A stretch of DNA of 64,000 nt from Deltaproteobacteria bacterium (lineage in GTDB: Bacteria; Myxococcota_A; Polyangia; HGW-17), in the NCBI GenBank assembly GCA_027858615.1, contig JAQICJ010000292.1, forward strand, positions 623 through 64,622. The letters are read 5' to 3'. This document shows, one piece after another, positions 5,311 to 57,061 of the stretch; position 1 is the first letter of the stretch, and each line of letters starts with the position of its first letter. The translations under genes were made by a program, and so were the position numbers. The notes under the pieces were generated by a model. It searched no databases and had not been told where the DNA came from. It worked only from the letters and a program-made list of their open reading frames with translations.

Positions 5311-5328
5311 TTGTTTTCCTGTTATTTA

Positions 5329-5490
5329 GTTCCCATCCCAAAAATGGATGTCATCGTCTGGCGACGGAATCTGGCTTCATCTGCTTTGTCGTAACTTCTT
5401 GAAATAGTTGTGGCTATATCTGCGAAGTTACTCCTCGCATCTGAAACCAGTTTCTTCACCAGCCAACAACCCCACTTCTGGGATGGGAAC
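5329..5490 (+). mobile_element. MITE-like dispersed repeat, copy 1 (~160 bp), with terminal inverted repeats GTTCCCATCCCAAAA ... TTCTGGGATGGGAAC.
   Basis: Direct sequence comparison with the copies at 5493-5652, 23946-24106 (inverted), 42368-42500 (degenerate) and 55461-55614. Shared core motifs are TCTGCGAAGTTACT, TTCTTGAAATAGT and GCAGATGAGG. Confidence 0.7.
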
Positions 5491-5492
5491 TG

Positions 5493-5652
5493 TTCCCATC
5501 CCAAAAATGGATGTAATCGTCTGGCGACGGAACTTTGCCTCATCTGCTTTGTCATAACTTCTTGAAATAGTATCAACTATGTCTGCGAAGTTACTGGGCA
5601 CATCTGAGGCAAACTTCTTCACCAGTCAAAATCCCCATTTTGGGACGGGAAC
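5493..5652 (+). mobile_element. MITE-like dispersed repeat, copy 2, in tandem head-to-tail with copy 1.
   Basis: About 85-90% identical to copy 1 by eye. Ends in TTTTGGGACGGGAAC. The ORF-track entries 5322..5576 and 5428..5622 are translations of these repeats, not genes. Confidence 0.7.
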
Positions 5653-5714
5653 TATTTCGTGTGGTTCCGGTTCAACTAAAAACCCAGTCTGAAACCTTTA
5701 TTTCAAAAAGGTTT

Positions 5715-6791
5715 TCAGAACTTTTCAAGATAGTTTTTGATTTCTGCGGCAAGTTCCTTGTCCAGCTTTTTATTTTTATGTTGAGAGAAGAAATCTTGCA
5801 ATGTTTTTTTTGATTCAGGCAGATCAAGTTTAATTAAGGCTTTGGCTGCGGTATCTCTTTCCAGGGAGGATTTGTCCAGGAACTTTTTCAGTATTTCCGG
5901 TGCCCATTTTCCTCGACTGTAACCAAGCCTGTTAATTGCAAGCAATTTTGTTTCCGGGTTCCAACTACGAGTTTTCGCTTTGAGGTAATTCTGAGCAGTT
6001 TGATAATTTTTCCTGGCCAAAAGTGCTGCAATGGGTAATTTTTTCGTACTACCCAAGAAGGGTTTGGAGAATTTTTTCTTCAGTGTTTCTTCGAGTTGAT
6101 CCAGCTTAAACCTGCTCAAAAGGTTGCAAGCTTCAAGTCCGTATTCTTTGTCGTCACTGAAATCTGCCAAAATCTGAAGTATTTCATCTGAACCAAGTAA
6201 ACCGCAACTGAGTGCAGCTTCGATCCTTATTTCTTTTGAACTTTCATTTTCAGCCATTTCTGTGAGTTTGGTGATACCTTTGGTATATTCCAGATCTCCA
6301 AGAGCTCTAATGAGATTGATGAGGATTTCATGATCTTTCTCCAGATGCAATCTGTCCAAAATATCCTGCCCCAGGTCAAAATATTTTTTTTCTACAATAG
6401 AAACAGGAGCTTGAAATCTTATTTCATTTGAATCGCTTTGCAAACATTGCTTCAATTCTTTTTTTGTATCTTTTTCTGTTTTTCCCATGGCAATAACTAC
6501 AGCTTCCCTTACTTTGACAGATTTATCATTCAACAGGGGAGCAATTTTCTGCCACAAGTTATCCACGGCCTGTAGCTCAATCAAAGACACCAAAGTTGTA
6601 TATCGGTAAAAAGGATGCTTATGTTCAAGATATTTGCCCAGGATTTCAATAACTTTTTCCCGTTGAGAGTCTTCTATTCTACCTGCATATTGCAAGCCTC
6701 TGATTCTTTTTCTTTCATATTTCGAATCCAGTAAAGTCTGGATATCCTGAAAGGTGTATTTCTGATTGTAGTTTTGGAAAAGCGATGACAT
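5715..6791 (-). CDS. HEAT / PBS-lyase-like repeat protein.
   Basis: Recurrent ~30-aa helical repeats with the D/E-x-x-V-R-x-x-A pattern (KSVKVREAVVIAMG, SNEIRFQAPVSI, SKEIRIEAALSCGLLG). Confidence 0.55.
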   Translation of the reverse strand: MSSLFQNYNQKYTFQDIQTLLDSKYERKRIRGLQYAGRIEDSQREKVIEILGKYLEHKHPFYRYTTLVSLIELQAVDNLWQKIAPLLNDKSVKVREAVVIAMGKTEKDTKKELKQCLQSDSNEIRFQAPVSIVEKKYFDLGQDILDRLHLEKDHEILINLIRALGDLEYTKGITKLTEMAENESSKEIRIEAALSCGLLGSDEILQILADFSDDKEYGLEACNLLSRFKLDQLEETLKKKFSKPFLGSTKKLPIAALLARKNYQTAQNYLKAKTRSWNPETKLLAINRLGYSRGKWAPEILKKFLDKSSLERDTAAKALIKLDLPESKKTLQDFFSQHKNKKLDKELAAEIKNYLEKF

Positions 6792-6853
6792 TATGTATCC
6801 AATTCAATTTTGCCGGTTTAAAAAGTGATGTGGCAAGTGAAAACCCGTAAAAT

Positions 6854-8140
6854 TCAACTCCTGTTGTTATTATTGTTATTATTATTGGGTTTTTTATTTG
6901 TTTTGTTTTTCGGATCCGATTTTTTTTCTTTTTGGTTTTTAGATCGGAAATCCTGATATTCATCAACAGTAAAGGTAATTGTTTCTTTGTCTCCGTCTTT
7001 AAGTCTTACTTTAATGATTTCCTTGAGAATATTGGACTCAATAACCCTGCCTCTACCTTTGGGAGTATTGATGCTTTTGCCTTCACGGGGATAATTGCGG
7101 GAATGCTTTTTATAAAATTCATATTCGTAGGAAAGACAACATTTAAGCCGTCCGCATTGTCCGGAAACATTTTGGGGATTGAGAACCAGGTTCTGCTTTT
7201 TAGCCATGCGAATGGAAACAGGCACGAATTTATGCAAGTGGCAGGCACAGCATAAGGAACGGCCGCATACTCCGATTCCCCCGCATACCTTGGAGTCGTC
7301 TCTTACTCCCATCTGCCTCATTTCAATTCTCACCGAAAAGCGGGAAGCAAGGGTTCTTACCAGTTTCCTGAAATCTACTCTGTGATCAGAGGTGAAGTAA
7401 AAAAGCAGTTTGTCTGCAGTATGCAGCATATGGACATGAAAAAGTTTCATTTCCAAACCGTATTTTTCAATTTTTTGTCTGGCGAAGAGATCAGCTTCTC
7501 TTTCAAGTATTCGATGTTTCTTTTCTATTTCAATGTCTTTATCTGTGGCTGGCCGCAGAAATTTACGAGGCAGCTTTTTCTGACTCCAGGTTTTGTATTC
7601 GGATCTTTGAAGGGCGCTGCCGATAAAAATACCTTTTTCAGTGTCCACGATAATTTTATCACCTTTTTCATAAACAGTGTCACATTGAGGAAACCAACTG
7701 ACCTTGCGGGGGATTCCCCAAACCAAAAGCGTCCATATATCGAGTCTGGTTTTTCCTTCAGGTCTTGTTTTGCTGTGGTAATTGGAGTAGAGATCATCTC
7801 CCCATGGATCAACATCGGTGTAGGACTTGGGAAATTGATAACTTTCGATTTTTTCCAGAGGCAGTTTTTCAAATTGTCCCGTGGAATCGTCATGGCCGTA
7901 ATTTACAATTTCAACTTTTTCAGTTGAATGTTCCGAAGAATACCTGTTTCCGTCTATAGTTACTTCAAAATTCAAGGATTTGCTGGAATTGAGAAAATTT
8001 CTCTTGTTTCTTTTGACTGGAGCACTCTTGTTATATTTTTTCTGAGAACCATGTTTCTTTTTTTTATCGCTGCTTCTGCTGTGACAAGACTTTTTCTGCT
8101 TATCTTTGCAGGAGTTGCGATTGTTTTTATCTGATTTCAT
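6854..8140 (-). CDS. PSP1 C-terminal domain protein (YaaT / RicT-like), with a Lys/Ser-rich N-terminal extension and a poly-Asn C-terminal tail.
   Basis: Cys-rich signature VCGGIGVCGRSLCCACHL...GQCGRLKCCLSYEYEFY. It overlaps upstream holB by 4 bp, which is the conserved holB-yaaT synteny. Confidence 0.75.
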   Translation of the reverse strand: MKSDKNNRNSCKDKQKKSCHSRSSDKKKKHGSQKKYNKSAPVKRNKRNFLNSSKSLNFEVTIDGNRYSSEHSTEKVEIVNYGHDDSTGQFEKLPLEKIESYQFPKSYTDVDPWGDDLYSNYHSKTRPEGKTRLDIWTLLVWGIPRKVSWFPQCDTVYEKGDKIIVDTEKGIFIGSALQRSEYKTWSQKKLPRKFLRPATDKDIEIEKKHRILEREADLFARQKIEKYGLEMKLFHVHMLHTADKLLFYFTSDHRVDFRKLVRTLASRFSVRIEMRQMGVRDDSKVCGGIGVCGRSLCCACHLHKFVPVSIRMAKKQNLVLNPQNVSGQCGRLKCCLSYEYEFYKKHSRNYPREGKSINTPKGRGRVIESNILKEIIKVRLKDGDKETITFTVDEYQDFRSKNQKEKKSDPKNKTNKKPNNNNNNNNRS

Positions 8141-11211: not shown

Positions 11212-11436
11212 ATTCAGTATTGTTCATGTATTTTTCAACTGTTAGCAGTTGAATGGTTTCCATCTCATAAATGGGTTATTGATTAAGCTTGAAGTTGAAT
11301 TGACTCGCGCTGGGTAATTTTGCAGACAGGGTAAATTCTATTTGCACAATTAATACAACCCGAATAAATTCAGAGCCTTCAACTAACCTTTGGGCAGGAA
11401 CCAATTAATTTAATTCCCGATAAATAACGAGGAAAT

Positions 11437-23940: not shown

Positions 23941-23945
23941 TATAG

Positions 23946-24106
23946 TTCCCGTCCCAGAAGTGGGGTTTTTGGCTGAATGAGAAGTTCGCCTCAGATGCGA
24001 GGAGAAACTTCGCCGACATAGTTGACACTATTTCAAGAAGTTATGACAAAGCAGATGAGGTAAAATTCCGCATTCAGACGATGACATCCATTTTTGGGAC
24101 GGGAAC
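23946..24106 (-). mobile_element. MITE-like repeat, copy 3, inverted relative to copies 1 and 2.
   Basis: Begins GTTCCCGTCCCAGAAGTGGGG and ends TTTTTGGGACGGGAAC. The internal sequence is the reverse complement of copy 1. It sits between two convergently transcribed genes. Confidence 0.7.
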
Positions 24107-26350: not shown

Positions 26351-26928
26351 AATTCTTGAAGTCCGGTATTTTTGGTAGCTGAAAAAAGAATCGGAGGTGG
26401 CATCTGGGGAAGTTTCTTTTGATACTGAACAAGCAGGTTGCCCCTTTTGTTTTTAGGGATTTTATCTACTTTGGTATAGACAACCACTACATTATTGTTC
26501 ATTTGCTGCAGCCATAAAAGAAAATCAATTTCATAACCGCTGATACCTCTTCTGGAATCTATCAGAAGAACAACCAGTTTGAGATATTCTCTGCCGGATA
26601 AATATTCGGTGATAAGCTCGCCCCATTCATCTTGCAGTTTGCTGTTGACTTTGGCATAGCCATACCCTGGTAAATCCGCAAAAATAAAAGGAGCTAACTG
26701 TTTGGTAACAGTTTTGAAAAAATTAATTTCACGGGTTCGCCCAGGGGTCTGACTGATGCGAACTAATTTACGCCGGTTGAGCAGTAATTTGAGCACGGAA
26801 GATTTTCCCACATTTGATTTTCCGGCAATAGCTATTTCGGTCAGTGCCTCCTGGGGAAATTGTTTGCTTGAACGGGCACCGAGTAAAAATTCTGCCTCAG
26901 TGACTTGGGGAATTTTAGATAGGGTCAT
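26323..26928 (-). CDS. engB: Ribosome-biogenesis GTPase YihA/YsxC.
   Basis: G1 motif AGKSNVGKSS, then TPGRTR (G2) and DLPGYG (G3), and the NKxD-equivalent TKVDK. Its start overlaps the stop of the giant TPR gene (ATGA). Confidence 0.85.
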   Translation of the reverse strand: MTLSKIPQVTEAEFLLGARSSKQFPQEALTEIAIAGKSNVGKSSVLKLLLNRRKLVRISQTPGRTREINFFKTVTKQLAPFIFADLPGYGYAKVNSKLQDEWGELITEYLSGREYLKLVVLLIDSRRGISGYEIDFLLWLQQMNNNVVVVYTKVDKIPKNKRGNLLVQYQKKLPQMPPPILFSATKNTGLQELWKSIQNHI

Positions 26929-29900
26929 GAGATATCTTCGAGGAAATCCTTTATTTTTTGATTGTTTGGATCTTCAGATAATCCGCGTTTAGCAGAAGAA
27001 ATGGCTTTCTTGGTATTGCCAAGGGAGTGATCAATTTTAGCAATTTTGAAATAGATTTCACTTTTAGTAATGATTCCGTCGAGCTTTTGGAAAAGCATGG
27101 CTCGGTAAATTTTCTGGGCTTTTTCCAGTTCTTCGTTGTTTTCATGCAGACCTGCAATGGAAAGCATATTATCGATATTTGTAGGATTCAAACGTCTGGA
27201 CTGATTGAACATTTCCAGAGCTCCTGCATAATCTTCCTGACTTTTCTTGATTTTACCAATACGCTGATAGATTACCGAAAGCGATTTTTTGGCTTTGCGG
27301 TTAGTTTTCAACTTGTCGATAAGGTCTGTATATATTTCCATGGATTTTTCATGGTTGCCCGAGGCATAGTACGTATCACCCAGTTTTTGTTTTACTTCGA
27401 TGTTGTCAGGTTCAATCTTGGCTGCTTCTTCAAGGTATGGGAAAGCAGCTTCAGAAGCACTCAGTTGAACAAATAATTCAGAAATTGAAAGCAGTAGTGG
27501 CAGTCTTTCTTCTGGATCTTCGACTTTGGGTAATTTAATTTCATAAAGTCGCAGTAAACCTTCTTTGTTTTCTGTTTCTTCATAATGTTTTTTCAAAGCT
27601 GAAAAAGCTTCGGAATGTTCGGGATAAAGATCTAGAGCATCTTCCCATCTGGTGATTGCTGTTTCCTTTTCTCCAAGTTTAAGGGCAATATTACCACGGC
27701 GGAAGGCCAGTTCGGCTCCCTCTCTGCCTTTTGGTTCAAGCAAAGCTGCTTTTTCGAGATATTGCTGGCATTTTTCCAGATCTTCCATGTTTTCATAAAG
27801 CCTGGCCATACCGGTAAGAGCAGTTACGTTGCCGGAATCTCTTTCCAGAATTTCTCCGAGAATTTCAAGGGCATTGTCGGCAGAACCGAGGTTTTCTTCC
27901 CAGATGCGAGCAATTCGATCGAGATAATAAACTTCTTCTTCTGAATTACCGAGGGAATTAGACAAATCTTTTCGTTTTTCCAGGATTTGAATTAAATCAT
28001 GATAACGTTCGGTTTTAATGAAGATTTCATCTAACTTATTGAAAGCTTTTTCATTGGATGCATCGATATCGATGATCTGTTTGTAATAATCACCGGCTTC
28101 AAAAAGGTCTTCTTGTTTGTTCAAGACCAGAGAAGCCATATTTTCAAGAATTAGAACTTTGGCGGTTTCTTCCTGGGTTTGGGATAATTTGGTGAAGTAA
28201 ATATCTTTCAAAGCATCCCAGTCTTCCTTGCTTTTGTAGATGGAGCACAAGGCTTCGTAGGAAACTTCATCGGAAGGATACATGAGGAAAGTATCTTGCC
28301 AGATTTCTTCGGCTTCATTGGGTTTATCCATTTTTTCAGCCAATAACCGGGCTGTTTTGTGTTTGACCTCAAGCAGTCCCGGATCGTTGGCCATATAGTT
28401 GGCTTTAACCTTTAGAATATCAATGAGTTTTCCCCAATTTTCAGTTTTTTCGTAAAGTCTGATCAATTGGTCTTGTACTTCTTTTTTAGATTCATTCTGT
28501 TCAAAGAGTTTTTGCCAGGCATCAATTGCTTTTTGTGGTTGTTCAAGGCGCTGCTCACTGAGATTGGCAATTTCTTTGAGAATAGTTTCTTTTTTCTCAA
28601 AATCGAAGATAACTTCACTTCTTTTATCGAGAATTTCGATGAGCTTATTGACTTCATCAGTAATGCGATAGAATTCTTCCAGATGCTTGAGAGCTTTATT
28701 GTTTTCGGGTTCAATATTCAGAACAAAACGATAAAGTTTTTCCACAGACTCGTTGTCACCGCTGTTCAAAGCAATTTGTGCGGTGAGCATGGCCAGGTCG
28801 ATGGCTGTCATTTCATCTAATTTATTGTCAAGAATATCTGAAACAATTTTAATAAGTTCAGTCTCTTTATTGGAAATTTCGGCGATCTTGATGAACTCAT
28901 CAACATATTGCTTTTCTTCAGGGGTGGTTTTAACTGCTTTTCCCCAGAGTTCAAAAGCTACTTCAATATTGCCCAATTGCTGGGAAATATTTGCAGCTTG
29001 AACAATGTATTCAGATTTGATAATTGGATCTTTAGTAATTTCAATTCTTTTCTTGAGGAGAGCAACCATTTTTTCTTGATAACCGAGATTTTCATAAATG
29101 GGTTGCAGAAGATCGAGAATTTCGGAAAGAACCGGAGTATCCTTTTCGAGAAGTTTTTCCAGAGCTGTTATGGTCAACTCGTGATTTTCAGAGAAAGCAA
29201 GAGCTTCTCTCCAGGCAGCCAGGGCTCCTTCATGATTTTCGAAGTGTTCAAGACGAAGTTGGCCGAGGCGATAGAAATAAGTTGATTTCTGATCCGGTTC
29301 AAAAGCAGTGTTGGCTTCCATCTGCAGAATGTTTTCCAATTCGTCAAATTTGGAAGTTTGATTGAGCAGTCTGTCCAGTTGGTTGAGAATTTCCAAATTA
29401 TCAGGCATGAATTCAACAGCTTTTTGCATGACTCTCACAGCACCTTCGAGATCTTCAAGTGAGAGTTCGTAAATATTTGCCTGGGTGAGAAGAATTTTTT
29501 TGCGGATTTCTTCATCGTAGATTTCTTCTACAATTTCGGAATAAAGTTCAACCAGTTTATCCCAGGCCTGTTTTTCAGATGCTATAGTATGCAACTGGGT
29601 TTCAGCATCTTTGTTCTCTGGATTTTCTTTAAAGAGGATTCCCCAATATTTGAAGGATTCCATTGGTTCCTGGATGGTGAGATACAATTCAGCTATGGAT
29701 CTGAGATTTACTTTGCGTTTTTCAGGATCAGCCTGATCTTCGAGCAGTAATTTGTACAATTTGATCAGGGATTTGTTCTGACCTTTGGTTTGATAAAGGG
29801 GTTCGAGAATTTTGGCTACGATATTTCTGTATTCAACTCTGTCGAGAAGTTTTTCCAGAGCAGCTACAGCCTGTTCATGATCGGGGTTGAAATCGAGGAT

Positions 29901-32900
29901 AAAATTGTATTTTTCAACAGCTTTTTCGATGTCGTTGATTTTATCTCTCAGGATATTTCCAGTTTCAAGAATCAGGTCGTTACGTTTGTCGTTGTCAGTT
30001 TCCAGTCCTGTTCTTTGTTCGAGAGTTTTGATTAACTCATACCAGTTCTCGTCTTGTTTATACAAGTCTGAGAGCATTTCCATGGCTTTGATATTGTCAG
30101 GGGAATCTTCAGTGATAATTTTGAGAGCTGAGATAGCTTCGAAGGAATCATTGAGTTTTTCCTGCTGAATTTCTGCCAGTTTGAAAGCTTTTTCAATTTT
30201 GTTTTCTCCATCAAGACGGATGATGTTTTTCAGAATTTCAGAAAGTTCATTATACTTTTCGGTTTCCCGGTAGAGGGATTCGAGAGCACTGAGAGCCTCA
30301 GTGTCTTCGGGGGAATACATCAGCAGTTTATCCCAGGTGGAAATGGCTTCTTCAGGTTCGGAAAGTACGTCCTGACGCAAGCGGGCAAGTTGTCTCAGAG
30401 TGGAAAGAATTTCCTCCTGATCTGTCAGTAGTTCTGACTTTCTAGCCAGGAGAGCAGAAAGTTTTTTCCATTGTTCGGATTCTTGCAACAGTTGAGCAAG
30501 TTCGGTGATTGCCTGCAGATGATCATCACGGATATCCAGCAATTTGTAATAGGTGATGATTGCCTGTTCCCTGTCATCAAGAGTTTCAGCCTGTATTCTG
30601 GCAATTTTCAAGAGAACATCAATTTGCAATTCGGTGTCATAGTTGTCTTTGATGCCTTCCTGAAGAACAGCTATCAATTCTTCCCAATTACCTTCCCTTA
30701 CTGAAATTTCATAGATTCTATTGAGGATTTCACGGTTGGAAGGTTCGAGCTTCCATGCTTCACTGAGGGATGTGAAGGCCCGAGCCAGATCATCCCCCCT
30801 TCCGTCGTAAAGATGGGCGCATTCTTTGAGTAATTCTATTTTGCGATATTCATCTTCGGAAAGTTCAATCTGGATTTCATATACAAAGACAAGTCGTTTC
30901 CAATAATCAAGTTCTTTGTAGATGGGTTCCAGAATTTTAGCCACCCTCAATTTGATGGAATCTTTATCCAGAAGTTTTTCCAGATAATCGATGGTGTTTT
31001 CATTGAGAGGATCGATATTGATGATTTCTTCAAGTCTGAAAACAGCGGAATCTGGATCATCAACTTTTTCATAATAAAGTTCGGCAAGCTTGAGATTGAG
31101 TTCTATGATTTCTGCAGGTACTGTTTTCATTGATACCTGCTGGATCAGGTGTTCGATCAAATCTTCCCAGTTGCCGAGTTTTGTATAGAGTTTGGTTAAA
31201 GCTTCAACCGCTTTTTGTTCTTCTGGTGATGATTCAAGAATTTCGCGATAAACTTCTACTGCCTCTTCGAGTTTATCGAGTTTATCTTCGAGAAGTTCAG
31301 AAATCTTGTACAGATTCTGGTTTTTCTTTTCAGGATCATAAAAGGAGTCGGCTGCATCGCGATATACTTTGAGCAGATTGTCCCAGCGTTCATTTTCAAG
31401 GAGGAGTAACTCAAGTTCTCTGAAGATATTTTCGTTGGAACTGTCACTTTCGAGAATACGTTTGTAATACTTCATGGACTCGTCGATTTTATTCATTTCC
31501 CGGGCATAAATACGGGCAAGGTGAGTCATGATGATAGTGATGTGTTCTCCCGCATAATAGGCATCTTCTACAATTTTAGAGAATACTTCGGTGAGTACTT
31601 CCCATTTATTCAGGAGTTCCGAGAGATTGAGAAGACGATCCCTGACCTTTTGATTGTCAGGTTGTTCCAGCAGCAGATGACCATACCAGGTGTAAGCTTC
31701 TTCAAGATCATCGAGGACAGTTTCATATAGTTCTGCTATGCGGCTGGTAAGTTGGGCTTTTTCTTCGGGAGTTTGTTTAATGTCTCTCTGAATAGAAAGA
31801 ACCTTGATCAGTTTTTTCCATTCCTGACGAGCTGCATAAACAGGCACGAGTACTTCTGAAGCTTCACCGGAGTAATCTTCTTTATCGAGGAAACTTTCCA
31901 GTCTGTTGATGATTTCTTCGGAAGTAGGACTTCCACCCAGAGCGGCACGGAAAGATTCAAGAGCTCTGTCCTGATTTTCGAGATAATCACAGAAAATTTC
32001 ACCCATATTGAATCTGATTTCCACAGCTTCTTGCAATTTGGTGGTGTAGCGAATTCTGTTTTCATACAGTTCTATCAAATTGTCCCATTTTTCCAGATCA
32101 AAGAGAATCTCTTCGAGAGAACGGAAAATCTTGTAGTCGTCCGGCTTGAATTCGAGGATAGTGTTATAGTATTCAATGGCTCGAATTGGTTCATTGAGTT
32201 TTTTCCTGCACAATTCGGCTGCTTTAACCAGAGCGTCATAACGGGCATCAAGATTGTCCAGAGCCATATTGGCCCTTTTTGTATAGATGCCAAGCAGTTG
32301 ATCCCATTGCTCTGTAAGTTCGTAAACCCTTTCCAGAGCATCCATGGAGTGAAAATTTTCAGGGGAAATTTCCAGAACTTTTTCATAATACTTCTGAGCA
32401 ATATCAAGTTTTTCGAGTTCATCTCTGGCAATGTCGGCTATGGTCAGAAATACCTGTTGTTGCAGATTTATGTCGATAATGTCATCGGCTACCTGAATGT
32501 AGAGGTCAACCAATTGTTGCCATTTATCTTCCAGAGCGGCAATGCGCTGAAGTTGAGCAAGAATATCAGGCAGTTCAGGTTCTCCAACAGCTTCCTTGAG
32601 GGCTTGTCCGTAAAAGCCGAAGGCCGAAACCGGTTTACCAAGTTCGGTTTCTTTGATTCCGGCTATTTTAAGGAAGAGGGATACTTTCTGGTGGGGATCA
32701 AAAGCATATCCGGCTTTGAGAACATAAAGGGCTGTAAGTTTTTCCCAATTGTTTTCAAGTTCATAGATAGTTTCAAGAATTTCCGCTGACTGAAGGGCAA
32801 GAGTTTCTTCACCTTGAAGCATGGATTCCAGAGCTGCTTTGGATTTTTCATGGGAGGGATCTTCATCAAGAACATTTCTGTAGTAAAAGATTGCTCTTTC

Positions 32901-35900
32901 AGGTTCTTCAAGATGTACCTGCAGAATATAACCCAGCCTGTAGTTGAGAGAGCGTCGGTCTTCGTCGTTTTCGGTGAGATTGAGTTCTCTTTCTACATAA
33001 TCGAAAACATCGGTCCAATTGCCCGATTGTTCATTGAGGCGGGCAAGATAACGGATAGCTTCGCCATGTTCCGGGTTTTCGTTGAGAATTGAAGTCCAAG
33101 CTTCAATGGCTCCTTCGAGATCATTAAGAGATTCTTCCCTGAGGATGGCAATTCTGGAGAAATAATTGAGTCGTTGTTCTTCATCCTGGGTAAGTTCGAC
33201 TTTTTTGGCCAGAATTTTTACAAGCTCATCCCATTTTTCGATGCGGGAATAAATAAATTCAAGTCGATCAAGAGCTTCGTCATCAGTGGGAAATTCTTCC
33301 AGTAATTTTTGATAGGTTTGAGCGGCTTCCAGAGGAGCATCAAGCATGTCTTCCTGGAGAACTGCGATATTACGGTAAATATCTTTTCGTTCTTCTTCTC
33401 CCTGAGTCCAGTTTAGTTGCTTTTTATAGATTTCAATAATTTCAATCCATTCTTCCATGGATTGATACAGGTTCACCAGAGCCTGGGCAGCTTCGTCCTG
33501 TTTTTGCAACATGCTTTCTTCACCGGCTTTTTCCAGAAGTTTTCTATACCATTCGATGGATTTTTTCGGTTCTTCCAGATGGGTCTCATGGATATCAGCT
33601 ATTTTTTCGAGGTATTCGATGATAAGCAGATTGTTGTCTTCAACTGCTTCAATGGCTTCCTGCCATACTTCTACTAATTTTTCGTAGGAATTGAGAGCAA
33701 TAGCGAGATTTTCGATGGAATCTCTGACATTGGCACTGGCGGGATCAAATTGGATAGCTCGTCGCCATACTTCAAATGCTTTTTCCGGTTCACTGAGTTT
33801 GAGGGTAAGAATTTGGCCGATTTTAGAGAGAATATCAACGGCTTCATAGTTGTCCTGGGTGTTTTCAAGTTTAATTTCCAAGAGATCAACCAATTTTTCA
33901 TGGTTATTTTCATCTTCCATGAGCCGGATGAGAATATCAGCTGCTTTTTGTCTTGTTTCCTTGATTTGAAGCATCTCTTCGAGCATCTGGCGAGTATTTT
34001 CGTGTCTCTGATCGAATTCAAGGATTTCACGGAGAATATCGATGGCCAGATTGGGAGATTCCATTTTGTGCAGGAGAATATCGGCTCGTTTATACATGAG
34101 ATCGATTCGTTCCTGGTCGGAATCAGCATAGATGAGTTCGTCTTCATAGAGGGCGGCCAGATTTTCCCATTTGTCCGATATTTCGTAAAGTCTGATGAGA
34201 GCTTCGAAGGCTTCATTAGATTCATTATCGAGTTCACGCAATTTGGTATATGAGTTGATGGCAGCTTCTACGTTGGCCAGCATATTTTCGTTGAGATGGC
34301 TCAACTTGGTGAGGATATCTTTTTGTTCTTCGGGTTCAACTACAACATCAAGGCGTTTAGTATACAGAGTTTTAAGATCTTTCCAGTCTTCAGAACCGGA
34401 GAAAATTCTTTCGAGAGCAAGAAAAGCGCCTTCATGAAGGGGATCTTCTTCCAGTACGGTAAGATAGAATTTTTGGGCTTCTTCCCGATTGTCTTCGTCA
34501 ATTTCTTCCATGCGGGCAATTTCCCAGGACAGGGAAAGTTTGAGTTTGTCTTCATGGTTTTCTATGTATTCGAGATAAGTTTCTTTGAGAGTGTTAATTC
34601 GTTCATCAAGTTTGGCGAGGGTGTGAAGTTTTTTGCGTACTTCTTCGTCCTCGGGTTTCAGTTTGAACAATTGAATAGCCAGATCAAAGCCCTTGCCCAT
34701 GTCACCTATTTTCTGAGTAGTGATATCGAGAAGTTCCTGGTAAAGTTCAATCTTTTTGGATTCATTTTCTTCTTGTCGGGCAATGACTTCAAGAGCGAAG
34801 GTATAATCTTCCCAGAGTTCTTCTTGCTTGTAATAAGGAAGAAGATGTCCGGCAGCTTCGATTCCGGTCTGGTTGTTTTTTTGATTTTCAAGAATTTCTC
34901 TGATAGCGGCTATAGTTTCTTCGTGCTGGGGAGAAAATTCCAGAACTCTGGCAAAATGGGGCAACGCATCTTCAGGTTGTTCAAGCATGTCTTTGAGAAG
35001 TTCGCCCAGACGGAATTCGAGGTTGATGATTCTTTCTTCTTCCTCAACTTCCTGGATTTCCATTTTAAGGATGCGAGCCAATTCTTCAAATTCATTTTCC
35101 CCGAGATAGAGGCGGTCAAGAGCCTGCAAGGATTTGAGATGAGCAGGATCTATGTCGATAATTTCGTTGTAATAACGAATTGCGCTTTCCTTGTCATCTT
35201 TTTGGATTTCCATGATGGAGGCCATTTTTTCGCGGGCCCAGATGGTTTTTTCGGGTTCGCTGTCTAATTCTATCTGTTTGTTTAAAATTGCTGTAAGTTC
35301 ATCCCACTCTTCTTTGATTTCGTAAATAGAAGCAAGTCCTTCGAGAGCTTTGTGGGATTCTTTATTGATGGCAAGAATTTCCTGGAGAACTGATTCGCCT
35401 TTTTCCAGTTCGGAGAGTTTTTCAATATAAATTTTGGAAAGACGTGAGAGCAGATCAATTTTGTCGTCGCCTTCCATGTCAGGTTTGACCTGATTGTATA
35501 TTTCTGCCAGATCAATCCATTTGTCAGCCTGCTCGGCGAAACTTTGCAATTGCTCAATAATTTGATTGTCAAAAGGGGAAATGAGATAGGCTTTTCCACA
35601 CCACTTGAAAGCTTGAGTGGGATCGCTGAGTTTTTTGTCGTAGCTTTCAATAAGTTTGTGGAGCCATTGCAATTTCTCTTCTTTGCTGTCGGCGTTTTTG
35701 AGCAGAACTTCGTACATATCGGCAGCTTTGTTCCAGCGATTCAACTCTTCATAGAGGGGCAGGAGGTTATCAGCTGCGGTTTTGTTGGTTTCATCGGTTT
35801 TCAGAACTTTTTCGTAAGGCTTGATGGCTCTTTCCGGTTTGCCGATTTTGGTGCGGTAGATATCAGCTACTTTAAAGAGCAGGAAGATTTTAGCTTCAGG

Positions 35901-38084
35901 ATCTTCTTCTCTAGAAGCGTATTGACTTAGAGTTTCGATATATCCCAGCCAATTGTCGTTTTGAGAGAATAAATTTTCCAGTTGTTCCCAATTTTTATTT
36001 TCTGCATAAAGAGTTTTTAAAATTTTGAGAGACTTTGGATGGTTGGGATTGAGTTCGTGAACTCTTTCCCATATTTCCATGGCTTTGGCGCCATAGGATT
36101 TCATTTTGTCAGTGAGGATATTTCCGGTTTTTTCGAGAAGGGGCAGAGCCTCTTCATCGGTGGACATGGAAATTTTGCGATTGAGCATTTCTACCAGAGC
36201 GGGATATCTTTTGTCCCTTCTGTAGAGGAAAATCAGATTTTCCATGGCGTCTATATCGTAGGGATCAACTTCCAGAATGCGATTCCAGGTTTCAATAGCC
36301 AATTTTATGTTGTTAAGGGGGTTTTGAGCAAATTCGGCCAGTTCGACAAGTTTTTCGTGTTTTTCTGATTCGGGGATCAGTTCAAGTTCTTTTTGGCGCA
36401 GGAAAAACAGACCCTTCCAGTTTCTTCTTTGTTCGTAGATGTCTTTGAGACTGTTGATTACTTCGATGTCGCCGGGATCAAATTCAAGAATTTCTTCAAG
36501 GGGCTGAGCAGCCCGATTGGGATTAGAAAGATTTTCGCTCCAAAAATGGGCGATTTGTTTGAGGTATTCTTTTTTGGTGTCGAGCTCTTTGGTATTATCA
36601 GCTTTTTTCTGATAAATGGTGATGACTTCTTTCCATCTTCCCATTTTTTTGTATTTTTCAGAAAGTTCTTCAATGGCCTGTTCATTTTCGGGATCTAGTT
36701 TCAGAACGCTGTTGTAAACATTGACAACCATGGCATCGACTTGCATTTTATCTTCGATAATCTGAGCCATTTTGATGAGGGTGTTTACTCTGGTTTCGAT
36801 GTTATCTTTGGGCAGTGAACGCTCTTCTTTTTTGTAAAGTTCAACCAGGGCATTCCATTTTTCTGTCTTGTGGTAGAGTTTTTTCAACTCTTCTTTGGCT
36901 TCTTCGTGGGCAGGATCCTGCTTGAGAATTCGTTTCCAGACGTCAATTGCCTTGCCGGGGTTAACTTCGATGCTGAATTCAGCTATTTTGCGGGCGAATT
37001 TGACAGTTTCGTTGATGTCGCCTCTGGCTTTGCGCATTGCCTGCTGCAGCATGGAAATATAGCGCATGGGCTCATCTTTTTCGAGGTAATAGGCTTCGTA
37101 AAAATTGAGGAGCAGGGGGGAATCAGGCTCGGTTTTGCGTAATTTGCGGAAATATTGTTCGGCTTTGTCAAGATCTTCCAGTTGTCTCCACCAGATCATT
37201 CCCAATTGGAGATAAATCCCGGGATCGGGGCGACGAGAAGTCTGGATTTCATTTTCATAAAACTCAATCAGATCTTCGGTTTTATCTTGTTGGTTATAGG
37301 CTGAGACAAGCAGAGTTTTAGACTTGGCGTTATCAGGATCTTCTTCTCTTACTTTTTTGATTAGAGTTTCAGCTTCCTGGGGATTTTGAAGGTATTCCAG
37401 CAAGTATTCTGCTGTTTCGAGGGTCAGCAACTGGCGGTTGTCAGGATCTTCAAAAAGATCGAGTTTGGGCTTGATCAGGTTGACAAATTCTTCGTATCTT
37501 TGATTTTCCCTGTAGATGCGACAAAGATGCTTGAGGGCGTCACCGTTGGTTTCATCCTGTTTAAGGGATTGCATGAGCAGAAGTTCTGTCTGTTCTTTGT
37601 CTTCTGCATATTTGGCCGATACTTCCGCAGCTTTGTAGAACATATGAGAAGCCAGCTCTTTTTCTTCAGCGTCTTCGGCTTCAGTGGTGAATTTGGAAAG
37701 CAGCTTTTCGTAATTGCCGGCTTCCAATTCAAGTTCTTCTACTTTTTCGGATAATTTTTCGTCTTCCGGCTGCAATTTGGCAAGTTGGCGGTAAGCTTCG
37801 AGGGAATTGTTCCCTTGCCATAACTCTGATTCCAGCAATTCAGCTTTTCTTTTGATATTTTCAATATTTTCAGGATCTATTTCCAGAATAATATCCAAAA
37901 AAGCCAGGGCAATTCTCAGTCGATTTGACTTGATTGCTTTGCGGAATGATTTTTCCAGAAAAACTACCTTTTCATTGTCAGAAATATCTTCTTGGGCAAG
38001 TTTTTCTTTGATTGTTTCAATCTGGTTGTTGATTTGGGAAGAACTCAGGAGGTTGGTGATTAAGGTTTTGATATCTTTAAGCAT
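26925..38084 (-). CDS. Giant (3719 aa) acidic protein made almost entirely of tandem TPR-like repeats. No signal peptide.
   Basis: A single uninterrupted 11,160-nt frame. Repeats of ~34-42 aa carry a recurring W-(D/E/N)-x-L-(I/V/A)-x-(L/I)-Y helix-turn motif (EKWDELVKIL, ENWEKLTALY, EQWDQLLGIY, EKWDNLIELY, ERWDNLLKVY, GNWEDLIEHL ...). Strongly Glu/Asp-rich. All antisense ORFs inside it look spurious. Confidence 0.85.
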   Translation of the reverse strand: MLKDIKTLITNLLSSSQINNQIETIKEKLAQEDISDNEKVVFLEKSFRKAIKSNRLRIALAFLDIILEIDPENIENIKRKAELLESELWQGNNSLEAYRQLAKLQPEDEKLSEKVEELELEAGNYEKLLSKFTTEAEDAEEKELASHMFYKAAEVSAKYAEDKEQTELLLMQSLKQDETNGDALKHLCRIYRENQRYEEFVNLIKPKLDLFEDPDNRQLLTLETAEYLLEYLQNPQEAETLIKKVREEDPDNAKSKTLLVSAYNQQDKTEDLIEFYENEIQTSRRPDPGIYLQLGMIWWRQLEDLDKAEQYFRKLRKTEPDSPLLLNFYEAYYLEKDEPMRYISMLQQAMRKARGDINETVKFARKIAEFSIEVNPGKAIDVWKRILKQDPAHEEAKEELKKLYHKTEKWNALVELYKKEERSLPKDNIETRVNTLIKMAQIIEDKMQVDAMVVNVYNSVLKLDPENEQAIEELSEKYKKMGRWKEVITIYQKKADNTKELDTKKEYLKQIAHFWSENLSNPNRAAQPLEEILEFDPGDIEVINSLKDIYEQRRNWKGLFFLRQKELELIPESEKHEKLVELAEFAQNPLNNIKLAIETWNRILEVDPYDIDAMENLIFLYRRDKRYPALVEMLNRKISMSTDEEALPLLEKTGNILTDKMKSYGAKAMEIWERVHELNPNHPKSLKILKTLYAENKNWEQLENLFSQNDNWLGYIETLSQYASREEDPEAKIFLLFKVADIYRTKIGKPERAIKPYEKVLKTDETNKTAADNLLPLYEELNRWNKAADMYEVLLKNADSKEEKLQWLHKLIESYDKKLSDPTQAFKWCGKAYLISPFDNQIIEQLQSFAEQADKWIDLAEIYNQVKPDMEGDDKIDLLSRLSKIYIEKLSELEKGESVLQEILAINKESHKALEGLASIYEIKEEWDELTAILNKQIELDSEPEKTIWAREKMASIMEIQKDDKESAIRYYNEIIDIDPAHLKSLQALDRLYLGENEFEELARILKMEIQEVEEEERIINLEFRLGELLKDMLEQPEDALPHFARVLEFSPQHEETIAAIREILENQKNNQTGIEAAGHLLPYYKQEELWEDYTFALEVIARQEENESKKIELYQELLDITTQKIGDMGKGFDLAIQLFKLKPEDEEVRKKLHTLAKLDERINTLKETYLEYIENHEDKLKLSLSWEIARMEEIDEDNREEAQKFYLTVLEEDPLHEGAFLALERIFSGSEDWKDLKTLYTKRLDVVVEPEEQKDILTKLSHLNENMLANVEAAINSYTKLRELDNESNEAFEALIRLYEISDKWENLAALYEDELIYADSDQERIDLMYKRADILLHKMESPNLAIDILREILEFDQRHENTRQMLEEMLQIKETRQKAADILIRLMEDENNHEKLVDLLEIKLENTQDNYEAVDILSKIGQILTLKLSEPEKAFEVWRRAIQFDPASANVRDSIENLAIALNSYEKLVEVWQEAIEAVEDNNLLIIEYLEKIADIHETHLEEPKKSIEWYRKLLEKAGEESMLQKQDEAAQALVNLYQSMEEWIEIIEIYKKQLNWTQGEEERKDIYRNIAVLQEDMLDAPLEAAQTYQKLLEEFPTDDEALDRLEFIYSRIEKWDELVKILAKKVELTQDEEQRLNYFSRIAILREESLNDLEGAIEAWTSILNENPEHGEAIRYLARLNEQSGNWTDVFDYVERELNLTENDEDRRSLNYRLGYILQVHLEEPERAIFYYRNVLDEDPSHEKSKAALESMLQGEETLALQSAEILETIYELENNWEKLTALYVLKAGYAFDPHQKVSLFLKIAGIKETELGKPVSAFGFYGQALKEAVGEPELPDILAQLQRIAALEDKWQQLVDLYIQVADDIIDINLQQQVFLTIADIARDELEKLDIAQKYYEKVLEISPENFHSMDALERVYELTEQWDQLLGIYTKRANMALDNLDARYDALVKAAELCRKKLNEPIRAIEYYNTILEFKPDDYKIFRSLEEILFDLEKWDNLIELYENRIRYTTKLQEAVEIRFNMGEIFCDYLENQDRALESFRAALGGSPTSEEIINRLESFLDKEDYSGEASEVLVPVYAARQEWKKLIKVLSIQRDIKQTPEEKAQLTSRIAELYETVLDDLEEAYTWYGHLLLEQPDNQKVRDRLLNLSELLNKWEVLTEVFSKIVEDAYYAGEHITIIMTHLARIYAREMNKIDESMKYYKRILESDSSNENIFRELELLLLENERWDNLLKVYRDAADSFYDPEKKNQNLYKISELLEDKLDKLEEAVEVYREILESSPEEQKAVEALTKLYTKLGNWEDLIEHLIQQVSMKTVPAEIIELNLKLAELYYEKVDDPDSAVFRLEEIINIDPLNENTIDYLEKLLDKDSIKLRVAKILEPIYKELDYWKRLVFVYEIQIELSEDEYRKIELLKECAHLYDGRGDDLARAFTSLSEAWKLEPSNREILNRIYEISVREGNWEELIAVLQEGIKDNYDTELQIDVLLKIARIQAETLDDREQAIITYYKLLDIRDDHLQAITELAQLLQESEQWKKLSALLARKSELLTDQEEILSTLRQLARLRQDVLSEPEEAISTWDKLLMYSPEDTEALSALESLYRETEKYNELSEILKNIIRLDGENKIEKAFKLAEIQQEKLNDSFEAISALKIITEDSPDNIKAMEMLSDLYKQDENWYELIKTLEQRTGLETDNDKRNDLILETGNILRDKINDIEKAVEKYNFILDFNPDHEQAVAALEKLLDRVEYRNIVAKILEPLYQTKGQNKSLIKLYKLLLEDQADPEKRKVNLRSIAELYLTIQEPMESFKYWGILFKENPENKDAETQLHTIASEKQAWDKLVELYSEIVEEIYDEEIRKKILLTQANIYELSLEDLEGAVRVMQKAVEFMPDNLEILNQLDRLLNQTSKFDELENILQMEANTAFEPDQKSTYFYRLGQLRLEHFENHEGALAAWREALAFSENHELTITALEKLLEKDTPVLSEILDLLQPIYENLGYQEKMVALLKKRIEITKDPIIKSEYIVQAANISQQLGNIEVAFELWGKAVKTTPEEKQYVDEFIKIAEISNKETELIKIVSDILDNKLDEMTAIDLAMLTAQIALNSGDNESVEKLYRFVLNIEPENNKALKHLEEFYRITDEVNKLIEILDKRSEVIFDFEKKETILKEIANLSEQRLEQPQKAIDAWQKLFEQNESKKEVQDQLIRLYEKTENWGKLIDILKVKANYMANDPGLLEVKHKTARLLAEKMDKPNEAEEIWQDTFLMYPSDEVSYEALCSIYKSKEDWDALKDIYFTKLSQTQEETAKVLILENMASLVLNKQEDLFEAGDYYKQIIDIDASNEKAFNKLDEIFIKTERYHDLIQILEKRKDLSNSLGNSEEEVYYLDRIARIWEENLGSADNALEILGEILERDSGNVTALTGMARLYENMEDLEKCQQYLEKAALLEPKGREGAELAFRRGNIALKLGEKETAITRWEDALDLYPEHSEAFSALKKHYEETENKEGLLRLYEIKLPKVEDPEERLPLLLSISELFVQLSASEAAFPYLEEAAKIEPDNIEVKQKLGDTYYASGNHEKSMEIYTDLIDKLKTNRKAKKSLSVIYQRIGKIKKSQEDYAGALEMFNQSRRLNPTNIDNMLSIAGLHENNEELEKAQKIYRAMLFQKLDGIITKSEIYFKIAKIDHSLGNTKKAISSAKRGLSEDPNNQKIKDFLEDIS

Positions 38085-42327: not shown

Positions 42328-42367
42328 TTTGCCTGCAGAATTGTTTTGCTGTCAGTTAGTTTTCATC

Positions 42368-42500
42368 TCAGAATGGTTTTTTTTGACTGGATAAAAAGTT
42401 TGCCTCTGATGCGTACAGTAACTTCCCAGACATAGTTGCCACTATTTCAAGAAGTTGCGATAAAGCAGATGAGGTTAAATTCCATATTCAGGCGAATACC
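42368..42500 (-). mobile_element. Degenerate MITE-like repeat copy 4, in the same orientation as copy 3 and lacking the terminal inverted repeats.
   Basis: The internal core ...TTCGCCGACATAGTTG(A/C)CACTATTTCAAGAAGTT...AAAGCAGATGAGGT(A/T)AAATTCC... is shared with copy 3. Confidence 0.55.
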
Positions 42501-42891
42501 TTCCTTTTTGAGATGTAAACTAGTTAATTCTTGGAAAAGAAGCAAATTGAAACTGAATTTTTTGTTCGGTTTAAATCCGGATAGGGTTAGTGCTCTGATT
42601 AGGAGTCAGGCAAAAATAAACTGGAAAATTCCCCGTAAATCTGCCGAAAGAAAAATCAGTAGCTGATTAATAAAACAATAAAAGTACTTGATTTTATAAT
42701 TGCTGCTCCTGCCTTTAGCGAACAGACAGCAACTAATCATTAGCAGAAAAAAATCATTTGTGTCAAGGGTCTGGATTTTTTTAAATTTATTGATTATATG
42801 AATAATCAGTTTCTCGGACAAATATTGTTTTATTTGCCTGAGAAATTCTGATCTGTATATTTTATTTATACTTTAATCTCGGGTTTACAGA

Positions 42892-55195: not shown

Positions 55196-55340
55196 ATTAT
55201 TTTTATTGATAAAAACTCATTGGGGTTATTGGCATCTCCCCGGAGTAGTATTACCCTTCCTTCCTAATTGCCGGCAGCTTGTTTCCTTCCTGATTACCGG
55301 CAGCTTGTTTCCTTTCTGATGGCCAGCGCCTTGTTTCCTT

Positions 55341-55451
55341 CCTGACAGGCCGGCAGCTTCTTCTTGAATATCAACTTGTTTTATTTGCTTTTTCAGATTA
55401 TTTTATGAGGGTCATTATATGAGCTTGGGTTCTGGTATTATTAATAATAGT
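55341..55451 (+). repeat. ~108-bp direct repeat, copy A. Copy B lies at 56954-57061 immediately 3' of the Sel1/Hcp-like gene.
   Basis: CCTGACAGGCCGGC(A/G)GCT(T/C)CTTCTTGAATATCAACTTGTTTTATTTGCTTTTTCAGATTATTTTAT(G/A)AGGGTCATTATATGAGCTTGGGTTCTGGTATTATTAATAA appears in both places. Copy A is preceded by decayed short tandem repeats (GCCGGCAGCTTGTTTCCTTCCTGAT x3), i.e. a degenerate gene 3' end. Confidence 0.8.
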
Positions 55452-55460
55452 TCTAGCGAA

Positions 55461-55614
55461 TTCCAAAATAGAAGTTTATCGTCTGGCGACGGAATCTGGC
55501 CTCATCTGCTTTGTTCTAACTTCTTGAAATAGTGACAACTATATCTTCAAAGTTATTTCGCGCATCTGAGGCAAACTTCTTCCCCAGCCAAAAACCCCCA
55601 TTCTGGGATGGGAA
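55461..55614 (+). mobile_element. MITE-like repeat copy 5, with a degenerate 5' inverted repeat and an intact 3' inverted repeat (...CATTCTGGGATGGGAAC).
   Basis: Direct alignment with copy 1: ...ATCGTCTGGCGACGGAATCTGGC(T/C)TCATCTGCTTTGT... and the 3' end TTCTGGGATGGGAAC. Confidence 0.65.
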
Positions 55615-56032
55615 CTATTTATCCTGTTTTTCCCCCTTTTTTATCTAAAATTTCAATTAGTCAGCACAATCTTTTCATTACCATCAGGTAAAGCTCTTTT
55701 TCCGTATTTCTTCCACCGTCAGAAGTAATTTACCTGCCGTCAAATCATTGAATGACTTTTCCCTTGAATTGCTTGAATATAGTCGATACACTGTTTTTAG
55801 TTTCGAATAAGGATTATTTGGTTTTTTTAAGTTTCATAACCCTTTTATATCATAAAAGGATCTGCCAAATAATCCTTTTTTTATTATTTTGGTTAGAAAT
55901 CCGGGTTAAAGAATTAAAAAATCCTGTGATTTGAAATATGGAGTAGGCTTTTTATCTCCAGGTGATTGCTACAAAAACGGTTACGGGGTAAAAAGTAGAA
56001 TTATTCCAAAAACTAACAAAAGGAGAAAATAA

Positions 56033-56959
56033 ATGCTAAACAAAATAATTATGTTAACACTGGCATTTCTAATTACTTCGACTGCTAAAGGGCAAAGAAA
56101 AGTTCATTTTAAAAAAGGTTTGAAATTTGAATTAAATCTGGATTTTGAAAATGCTGAAAAAGAATTTAAAAAAGCTTGTGCTTTGAAGTCTGGATCTGGT
56201 TGTTTTAAACTAGGATATTGCTACAAAAACGGTACCGGGGTAAAGAAGGATAAAATAAAAGCAGCAAAATATTATAAAAAAGCCTGTGCTTTGAAGTCTG
56301 GAGCTGGTTGTTTTAAACTAGGGGATTGCTACAAAAACGGTACCGGGGTAAAGAAGGATAAAACAAAAGCAGCAAAATATTATAAAAAATCCTGTGCGTT
56401 GAAGTCTGGATCTGGTTGTTTTAAACTAGGGGATTGCTACAAAAAAGGTACCGGGGTAAAACAGGATAAAACAAAACCAGCAAAATATTATAAAAAATCC
56501 TGTGCGTTGAAGTCTGGATCTGGTTGTTTTAAGCTAGGGGATTGCTTAGGGGATTGCTACCAAAACGGTTACGGGGTAAAGAAGGATAAAACAAAAGCAG
56601 CAAAATATTATAAAAAAGCTTGTGCTTTGAAGTCTGGATCTGGCTGTTTTAAACTAGGGGATTGCTACCAACATGGTTACGGAGTAAAGCAGGATAAAAC
56701 AAAAGCAGCCATGTATCATAAAAAATCCTGTGCTTTGAAGTCTGGAGCTGGTTGTTTTAAACTAGGGAGTGACTACAAAAACGGTACCGGGGTAAAACAG
56801 GATTTAACAAAAGCAGCCATGTATTATAAAAAAGCCTGTAAATATGGGTATCAAGGAGGCTGTAGACTAACCCCGGATCCAAGAAAGCGGCCTTTTACTG
56901 GAACCAGACCAACCAATTACTGTAAGCCAACCAAGCCTCCGTATATTCCTCCTTCCTGA
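56033..56959 (+). CDS. Sel1-like repeat (SLR) cysteine-rich protein of the Helicobacter Hcp type, secreted.
   Basis: Signal peptide MLNKIIMLTLAFLITSTAKG. Seven consecutive ~37-aa units KAAKYYKK(A/S)CALKSG(S/A)GCFKLGDCYKNGTGVK(K/Q)DKTK, with paired Cys per unit as in HcpA/B/C. Confidence 0.85.
   Translation: MLNKIIMLTLAFLITSTAKGQRKVHFKKGLKFELNLDFENAEKEFKKACALKSGSGCFKLGYCYKNGTGVKKDKIKAAKYYKKACALKSGAGCFKLGDCYKNGTGVKKDKTKAAKYYKKSCALKSGSGCFKLGDCYKKGTGVKQDKTKPAKYYKKSCALKSGSGCFKLGDCLGDCYQNGYGVKKDKTKAAKYYKKACALKSGSGCFKLGDCYQHGYGVKQDKTKAAMYHKKSCALKSGAGCFKLGSDYKNGTGVKQDLTKAAMYYKKACKYGYQGGCRLTPDPRKRPFTGTRPTNYCKPTKPPYIPPS
56167..56850 (+). repeat. Tandem array of ~111-bp near-identical DNA repeats (about six units) encoding the SLR units.
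   Basis: Visible unit-to-unit DNA identity well above 90%. Includes a 12-bp micro-duplication GGGGATTGCTTA|GGGGATTGCTAC at 56537-56560. Confidence 0.85.
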
Positions 56960-57061
56960 CAGGCCGGCGGCTCCTTCTTGAATATCAACTTGTTTTATTT
57001 GCTTTTTCAGATTATTTTATAAGGGTCATTATATGAGCTTGGGTTCTGGTATTATTAATAA
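56954..57061 (+). repeat. ~108-bp direct repeat, copy B (partner of 55341-55451).
   Basis: See copy A. It overlaps the last codons of the SLR gene. Confidence 0.8.

Follow-up and report, generated by a model that had tools for sequence, protein, structure and literature searches.

The repeats at positions 5329-5652 of the window (the 64,000-nt stretch of contig JAQICJ010000292.1 analysed here; G+C content, 39.4%) belong to a previously undescribed family of bacterial MITEs from an uncultured deltaproteobacterial/myxobacterial lineage, a fairly ordinary kind of mobile DNA; no MITE of this lineage is described in the literature searched. The best explanation of the evidence as a whole, to which we assign a probability of about 80%, identifies the repeats with a non-autonomous DNA transposon (MITE) mobilised in trans. 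According to the scheme that we propose, the intergenic DNA of a lineage labelled Deltaproteobacteria or Polyangia would harbour hundreds of scattered copies of the element, and a putative DDE-type transposase acting in trans would make a staggered cut at Y-TA-RY-TA-R (mostly TAGTTA/TAACTA), the target being duplicated on both sides of the inserted copy. Each insertion regenerates the rare target beside the element, with new copies frequently settling next to resident ones, in either orientation; direct neighbours persist as tandem arrays, whereas inverted pairs, which would constitute long perfect palindromes, would be deleted, leaving stubs of 15-32 nt. The family represents a clean natural example of a transposon that builds its own tandem arrays by means of a rare, self-regenerated target and whose inverted neighbours are eliminated.

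Copies, host lineage and coding capacity

Six copies were identified in the window, where a sequence-only reading had recognised five. Those five are indeed present, with pairwise identities of 78-85% over ~160 nt, far above chance; the sixth, heavily decayed copy (copy 6; 11256-11401, minus strand, 146 nt; profile search E 4e-5), with the ends GTTTCCATCTCA ... TTTGGGCAGGAAC, lies between two plus-strand genes, and no recognisable duplication was found in its flanks. Copy 1 (5329-5490, plus strand, 162 nt; nhmmer score, 190 bits) and copy 2 (5492-5652, plus strand, 161 nt) are the left and right members of a head-to-tail pair located between two co-directional minus-strand genes. Anchoring on the termini retained the end proposed for copy 2 but moved its start from 5493 to 5492. 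Copy 1 stands 18 nt upstream of tatD (start codon at 5310, minus strand); its 5' end is immediately preceded by a TA (5327-5328) inside the flank TATTTA, and copy 2 is followed by TATTTC, matching this left flank of the pair at five of six positions. The junction between the two copies is a single T (5491) as opposed to the usual 6-nt TA-NN-TA, and the same atypical junction recurs in an independent contig (L047) of the same strain. Since copies 1 and 2 are only 83% identical, the pair is not a recent duplication.

Copy 3 (23945-24106, minus strand, 162 nt) is located between convergent genes and has the flanks TAACTA/TATACT, an imperfect duplication. Copy 4 (42359-42520, minus strand, 162 nt; flanks TAACTA/TAACTG), found between divergent genes, had been described as a decayed copy at 42368-42500 devoid of terminal inverted repeats; it is in reality full-length, and its ends (GTTTACATCTCA / TGAGATGAAAAC) are degenerate yet recognisable. 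Copy 5 (55450-55615, plus strand, 166 nt) lies between co-directional genes, upstream of a Sel1-repeat gene; its 3' end is intact, and the decay previously noted at its 5' end proved to be a disruption by a small insertion. The intergenic location suggested for the copies stands, but only copy 3, rather than two of the copies, is at convergent gene ends.

A 24-base core pattern, run against a single genome of each species, yielded at least 50 matches at at least 46 loci, and all of the matches listed came from a single MAG, 'Polyangia bacterium 20BLK6-1.bin.28', which confirms the high genome-wide copy number that had been predicted. A profile search of these MAG loci together with the window retrieved 104 non-overlapping matches, 66 of them full-length (modal length, 162 nt), with copy extents anchored on the termini. 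The window itself belongs not to 20BLK6-1.bin.28 but to a close relative, the strain of which is represented by contigs of the JGI metagenome 3300051639 (L047 and L048) and by the NCBI 'Deltaproteobacteria bacterium' MAG. TrpRS of the window's organism and of the related MAG is 94% identical at the protein level and 89% at the DNA level (75.5% at third codon positions). Identity between non-orthologous MITE copies of the two genomes reaches 94%, which exceeds what neutral divergence would leave for insertions predating the split, indicating that after the split either the family was active or its source copies were conserved; the scheme proposed above adopts the former view, with activity since the separation of the window's organism from the related MAG. 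Judging from the dispersed copies within one genome, which are on average 81% and at most ~93% identical, the family may be quiescent now.

One minus-strand frame is open across the whole of copy 1, and such ORFs have been annotated by gene callers, as would be the case if the repeats were a small protein-coding family, or fragments of a longer gene, specifying the peptide 'KADEA(R/K)FRRQT...'. However, flank and first base together create a TAG that closes this frame on its 5' side, and the frame contains no start codon; the family consensus has a stop in its only near-open frame, and the frame is open in just 9 of 45 copies. A search among 5.8 billion proteins returned merely 11 matches of 30-76 aa, all of them labelled 'hypothetical', and no longer protein sharing the element peptide, for which reason a hidden transposase C-terminus was likewise rejected. 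The coding reading is refuted for practical purposes. The element carries no transposase ORF, its apparent ORF not being conserved, and is non-autonomous, as the sequence-only reading had it; the false gene family which that reading foresaw also exists, in the form of the eleven 'hypothetical proteins' in public databases that match the translated element. The family thus seeds databases with spurious proteins and, in addition, breaks assemblies of this uncultured lineage; masking it during annotation is advisable.

Target site and insertion beside resident copies

Almost every intact copy conforms to the layout …TA-NN-TA|GTTCCCATCCCA……TGGGATGGGAAC|TA-NN-TA…, with a unit length of 162 bp, or 166 bp when the conserved terminal TA dinucleotides are included. 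The inverted repeats are those originally proposed, extended outwards by the conserved TA. Target-site duplications, expected if the repeats are mobile, are present: of 61 copies, 27 have identical flanking 6-mers and another 13 have 6-mers with a single mismatch, against 4.9 and 11.5 when flanks are re-paired, and the central NN of TA-NN-TA is the same on both sides in 39 copies, against 8.1 expected. Two copies possess a 3-nt centre in place of NN. The target is narrow and nearly palindromic, Y-TA-RY-TA-R. TAGTTA/TAACTA makes up 15 of the 27 perfect duplications, compared with 50 of 843 free TANNTA sites, and the 8-bp site YTARYTAR occurs 45 times beside elements and 15 times free.

Presence/absence polymorphism between strains, a further expectation for a mobile element, was observed at one locus. 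The orthologous site upstream of trpS is filled in the related MAG (L010), where the element is accompanied by the duplication, and empty in the window's strain (L048), which has a single ATTAAAC…AATC with conserved sequence on either side. The element inserts by staggered cutting, duplicating a short TA-rich target.

The extent of the duplication can be read in two ways, since a 6-bp duplication around an element GTTCCC…GGGAAC and a 2-bp duplication upon insertion of TA-GTTCCC…GGGAAC-TA into TA|NN|TA would leave identical filled and empty sequences. If 6 bp are duplicated, both TAs, inner and outer, are copied from the same bases of the target and ought to decay to the same degree. The inner TA is nevertheless better conserved than the outer one (95.5% versus 81.6%, p = 1.4e-6; in copies with a matching centre, 153/156 versus 139/156), which favours a duplication of 2-3 bp, although one copy (L008), with AAGCTA on both sides, is a better fit to the 6-bp reading. 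Duplication is certain for the two central base pairs (three in two copies); from the pattern of decay, the true duplication is probably confined to these central 2-3 bp, with the inner TA forming part of the element. An IS630/Tc1-mariner-type MITE, with duplication of TA only, was rejected, because the variable NN beside the TA is duplicated as well; a TA-only duplication model would require an internally repeated 10-bp target.

Globally, 78 of 81 copies are intergenic, 41 lying between co-directional, 21 between divergent and 5 between convergent genes, and their orientation relative to transcription is unbiased (24 versus 17). A replication-linked orientation, as expected for single-strand transposition, was rejected, no GC-skew bias being apparent (31/63), and neighbouring copies share the same orientation in 16 cases and have opposite orientations in 8, which is not significant. 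Copies are found directly upstream of the ribosome-binding sites of tatD (window), trpS (L010) and the Y1 gene described below (L048), and from this position just 5' of the ribosome-binding site they may alter the expression of those genes. No fixed spacing between copies and gene starts was detected; a promoter or terminator function was rejected, as no such signals rose above the shuffled background.

Head-to-tail neighbours occur in the window and in L023 (three copies), L031, L043, L021 and L026. Apart from the single T of the window pair, tandem junctions carry the same TA-NN-TA as the outer flanks, and the GGGAAC-N-GTTCCC motifs in our data correspond to junctions of adjacent MITE copies, with the exception of a lone motif in L050. 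The tandem partners are mostly 73-86% identical, like random pairs (background, 81%), indicating that most of them are independent insertions; copies 1 and 2 of L023 are identical, so local duplication occurs too. On the simplest account, tandem pairs form because every insertion restores the rare target, mainly TAGTTA/TAACTA.

Inverted neighbours show a different picture. At five inverted junctions a solo terminal stub of 15-32 nt, the remnant of a partner, abuts an intact copy (L033:959-982, L005:2843-2861, L014:631-662, L038:604-618 and L028:1897-1914), and in each case the stub, the junction 6-mer and the neighbour's end make up a perfect short hairpin. The difference between the 7 direct junctions with both copies intact and the 5 inverted ones with a truncated partner is significant (Fisher p = 0.0013). 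Orientation-specific insertion as the cause of the direct-only tandems is contradicted by these five junctions. We read the stubs as what remains of deleted inverted partners, although they may also have originated by aberrant end processing.

A subfamily with fully compensated variant ends, GTTCTCGTTTCAG…CTGAAACGAGAAC, was also encountered (L031:1489-1651, L013:1989-2151 and L037:55-217). Its copies occupy the apex of the hairpin of a host copy, share the orientation of that copy and lack a clean duplication, and chimeric copies with one end of each type are present at L031:4468-4629 and L035:4963-5124. These nested and chimeric copies may have arisen by recombination, or they may spread as entire composite units.

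A compensated hairpin and a co-resident Y1 gene

The family consensus folds end to end into one long hairpin. Its folding energy is -69.3 kcal/mol (z -8.6) for the strand complementary to the orientation used in the sequence-only reading and -45.9 kcal/mol (z -4.7) for the other strand. The structure is conserved and covaries across copies: for 58 distinct copies and 46 pairs, 96.2% of the cells are standard pairs (96.7% in helix 1), against 90.4% after shuffling, with 0 of 500 shuffled sets reaching the observed value, and 27-47% for slid partners. Compensatory double changes were found in 19 of the 46 pairs, including pairs far from the termini (45:120, 47:118, 48:117, 50:115 and 62:102), and amount to 194 cells against 75 expected, counts which overstate the number of independent events, the copies being related by descent. 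Wobble cells are one-sided, with 207 G·T against 35 A·C (116 against 35 when two consensus wobble columns are left out); by column, G·T is in excess in 20 and A·C in 6. The direction of this asymmetry, even though shared descent inflates the wobble counts too, requires selection acting on one strand in single-stranded form, be it DNA or RNA, and suggests that this form, as a DNA intermediate or as a transcript, plays a part in propagation.

The strong fold (z -8.6), the covariation above both controls and the one-strand G·U excess are also what would be seen in an immobile, host-maintained family of structured non-coding RNA genes or of cis-regulatory RNA hairpins, and the location of several copies in 5' leaders just before ribosome-binding sites would fit such a role. 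Yet the duplicated flanks and the orthologous empty site demonstrate insertion, the orientation of the copies towards the flanking genes is unbiased (24 versus 17), promoter- or terminator-like signals do not exceed background, Rfam yields no match at either the gathering or a permissive threshold, and many copies are decayed, truncated or nested. We consider immobile RNA genes highly improbable. A structured-RNA or REP-like family had been offered as an alternative in the sequence-only reading; it does not hold as the primary identity, because the duplicated flanks and the empty site show staggered-cut insertion, but the covarying, strand-asymmetric hairpin that it implied is real. The MITE reading itself has fared well, the family comprising more than five copies, with target-site duplications and a conserved structure, and not consisting of fragments of a longer gene.

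The sole multi-copy protein in the 379 kb of DNA fetched is a Y1 transposase-like protein of 319 aa (P0012; IS200-like, HUH; Pfam Y1_Tnp 28.1 bits, cutoff 23), and the 3' end of its gene occupies positions 1-386 of the window. The gene is followed by a conserved tail of ~230 nt with a CCCGT-loop-ACGGG hairpin, and the unit in the window extends over positions 1-619, with an inverted repeat at 598-619. An identical protein is encoded in a second context beside trpS (L048, unit 5662-7192), so that the unit has at least two contexts in the window's strain; in the related MAG, contig ends carry it too. A 22-bp inverted repeat of its own, CCCTGACCGGGTCGAGTTTTCC, delimits the unit; this repeat occurs at Y1 units only and bears no relation to the ends of the MITE. 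To our knowledge, it is unusual for the Y1 gene of an IS200/IS605-type element to be enclosed by terminal inverted repeats.

HUH enzymes act on single-stranded hairpins. The MITE-like repeats might accordingly be pictured as a REPIN-like element that is moved as single-stranded DNA by the Y1 protein, with the hairpin strand as its substrate: the hairpin is symmetric, compensated and strand-asymmetric, resembling the compensated hairpins of REPINs (PMC3116915), and the copies, like the REPINs served by RAYT genes, are abundant, intergenic, often clustered and accompanied by a Y1 gene (P0012) in the same genomes (PMC3116915, PMC3337134). In L048 a MITE copy even lies 17 bp upstream of the Y1 start codon, and the lone GGGAAC-TAAATA-GTTCCC of L050 follows the stop codon of a Y1 homologue. 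Against this, the element is flanked by target duplications whose central dinucleotide varies from copy to copy but agrees on both sides, its target is palindromic, it inserts beside resident copies in both orientations, and GC-skew bias is absent (31/63). We know of no case in which HUH single-strand transposition (IS200/IS605) yields such duplicated flanks, and 'target site duplication' is absent as a term from the REPIN literature searched. The MITE copy beside the Y1 gene has its own TAACTA duplication and is therefore an insertion, the repeat bounding the Y1 unit differs from the MITE ends and is found at Y1 units only, and three Y1 homologues (55-59% identity) have no MITE nearby. A link between the Y1 gene and the MITE is unlikely, and movement of the element by this protein in the manner of a REPIN appears quite improbable.

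The lone motif mentioned above (L050:1739-1756) stands right after the stop codon of a homologue with 59% identity; it consists of both terminal hexamers of the MITE, enclosing a 6-mer that resembles the target, and is not accompanied by a MITE body. A dispersed REP family around the Y1 gene was rejected, given that the GACCSGGTC core occurs only nine times in 379 kb, almost always at Y1 units. Outside the Y1 unit proper, GACCSGGTC palindromes were seen at L048:8252, upstream of trpS, and in L050, where two of them on each side of the Y1 homologue are reminiscent of REPs around RAYT genes.

Returning to a transposon moved by a DDE enzyme, an enzyme of this kind that binds double-stranded DNA accounts, by itself, neither for the deep-stem covariation nor for the strand asymmetry. 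It is conceivable, if unlikely, that the strand-specific, covarying full-length hairpin is needed for propagation, via a folded single-stranded intermediate and with target duplications still being made. Two routes can be envisaged: folding back of a copy-out strand, or a new mode of action of the co-resident Y1/HUH protein. On the copy-out route, the circularised strand would have to fold back, thereby bringing together the ends of a very short element. The strand-specific compensatory evolution of the hairpin offers a way of testing whether elements this short depend on a folded single strand for joining their ends.

Candidate transposase and relation to known elements

Among DDE enzymes, a copy-out-paste-in transposase of the IS30 type would be the leading candidate for mobilisation in trans, because of the combination of a 2-3-bp duplication, a palindromic hot-spot and insertion beside the element's own ends. 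Under such a mechanism, the circle junction of one copy would read …GGGAACTA-NN-TAGTTCCC…. IS30 family members generate 2-bp duplications, use nearly palindromic hot spots, insert beside their own inverted repeats and form exclusively IRL-IRR junctions (PMC9333248). The element resembles them in its nearly palindromic target, its probable 2-3-bp duplication and its insertion beside its own ends; moreover, all 7 intact adjacent junctions are head-to-tail, with a spacing of 2 nt between the ends when the inner TA is assigned to the element. It differs in that five inverted junctions with truncated partners exist as well, that its tandems are equally explained by a regenerated rare target together with the loss of inverted pairs, and that no IS30-type transposase or full-length IS with the element's ends was found in the DNA searched. 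By analogy of behaviour, IS30 would be the closest known system, which we regard as a lead and not as membership.

The search for a transposase with matching inverted repeats, which the sequence-only reading had suggested, was unsuccessful: neither an autonomous element nor a DDE transposase bearing the MITE ends was found in the 379 kb of DNA fetched. Orphan termini that could have been the ends of a longer element (L040:2585 and L004:2916) were rejected as solo ends beside a radical-SAM gene and a response-regulator-like gene, and the inverted half-copies in L037, considered as a larger element, enclose endonuclease IV. A metagenome scan for a terminus followed by a non-MITE interior used a filter that requires non-MITE bases past the apex of the hairpin and lets through 2 of 69 known termini; it yielded only a diverged complete MITE from another metagenome (L053) and a chance match in a membrane-protein gene (L054). 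The partner transposase element may be absent, diverged at its ends, or unsampled.

Bacterial MITEs are characterised by terminal inverted repeats, a flanking target duplication, the lack of a transposase gene, multiple intergenic copies, a long stem-loop and a size generally under 200-400 bp (PMC3184786), and the element displays every one of these defining features save an identified partner. It is similar to Correia/NEMIS, ERIC, RUP, Nezha and Chunjie in being shorter than 200 bp, intergenic, bounded by inverted repeats and a target duplication, and able to form a stem-loop. It differs from these named families by its uncultured host lineage and the lack of a known partner IS, and no sequence relationship to them was found: the window has no match in Rfam 15 at the gathering threshold, permissive searching (E below 1) returned microRNA-hairpin matches only, at noise level, and blastn of the element against plasmids retrieved no similar DNA. 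ERIC-type elements are reported to duplicate a bare TA (PMC3184786), whereas here a variable dinucleotide lies at the centre of TA-NN-TA. The Bacillus cereus group element bcr1 is about 155 bp long, according to PMC3184786 (which cites Okstad 2004 and Klevan 2007), and thus comparable in size; according to the same review, it also shares with the element short flanking direct repeats, a non-conserved distribution between relatives and compensatory changes that keep a single-stranded fold. The bcr1 described there has, however, 5-bp direct repeats and a cruciform-like two-stem fold and is transcribed, in contrast to the single long hairpin and TA-NN-TA flanks of the element. Co-transcription with neighbouring genes and effects at the RNA level would be expected of a transcribed structured repeat of the bcr1 or ERIC kind; the orientation of the element to genes is unbiased (24 versus 17). 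The strand-specific compensated hairpin and the clear pattern of self-adjacent insertion lift the family slightly above routine.

Several other repeats were noticed in the window. A 112-bp direct repeat (97% identical; 55336-55447 and 56950-57061) brackets copy 5 and the Sel1-repeat gene, and its first unit stops 2 nt short of the 5' end of copy 5, which suggests a duplication or rearrangement with a breakpoint at the element. The Sel1-like coding repeat array itself (55897-56947) is composed of at least six 108-nt (36-aa) units of 63-88% identity, within the ORF at 56033-56959. Finally, a very large minus-strand ORF (26925-38084; 3719 aa) contains internal families of 40-44-nt repeats (D6 and D7).
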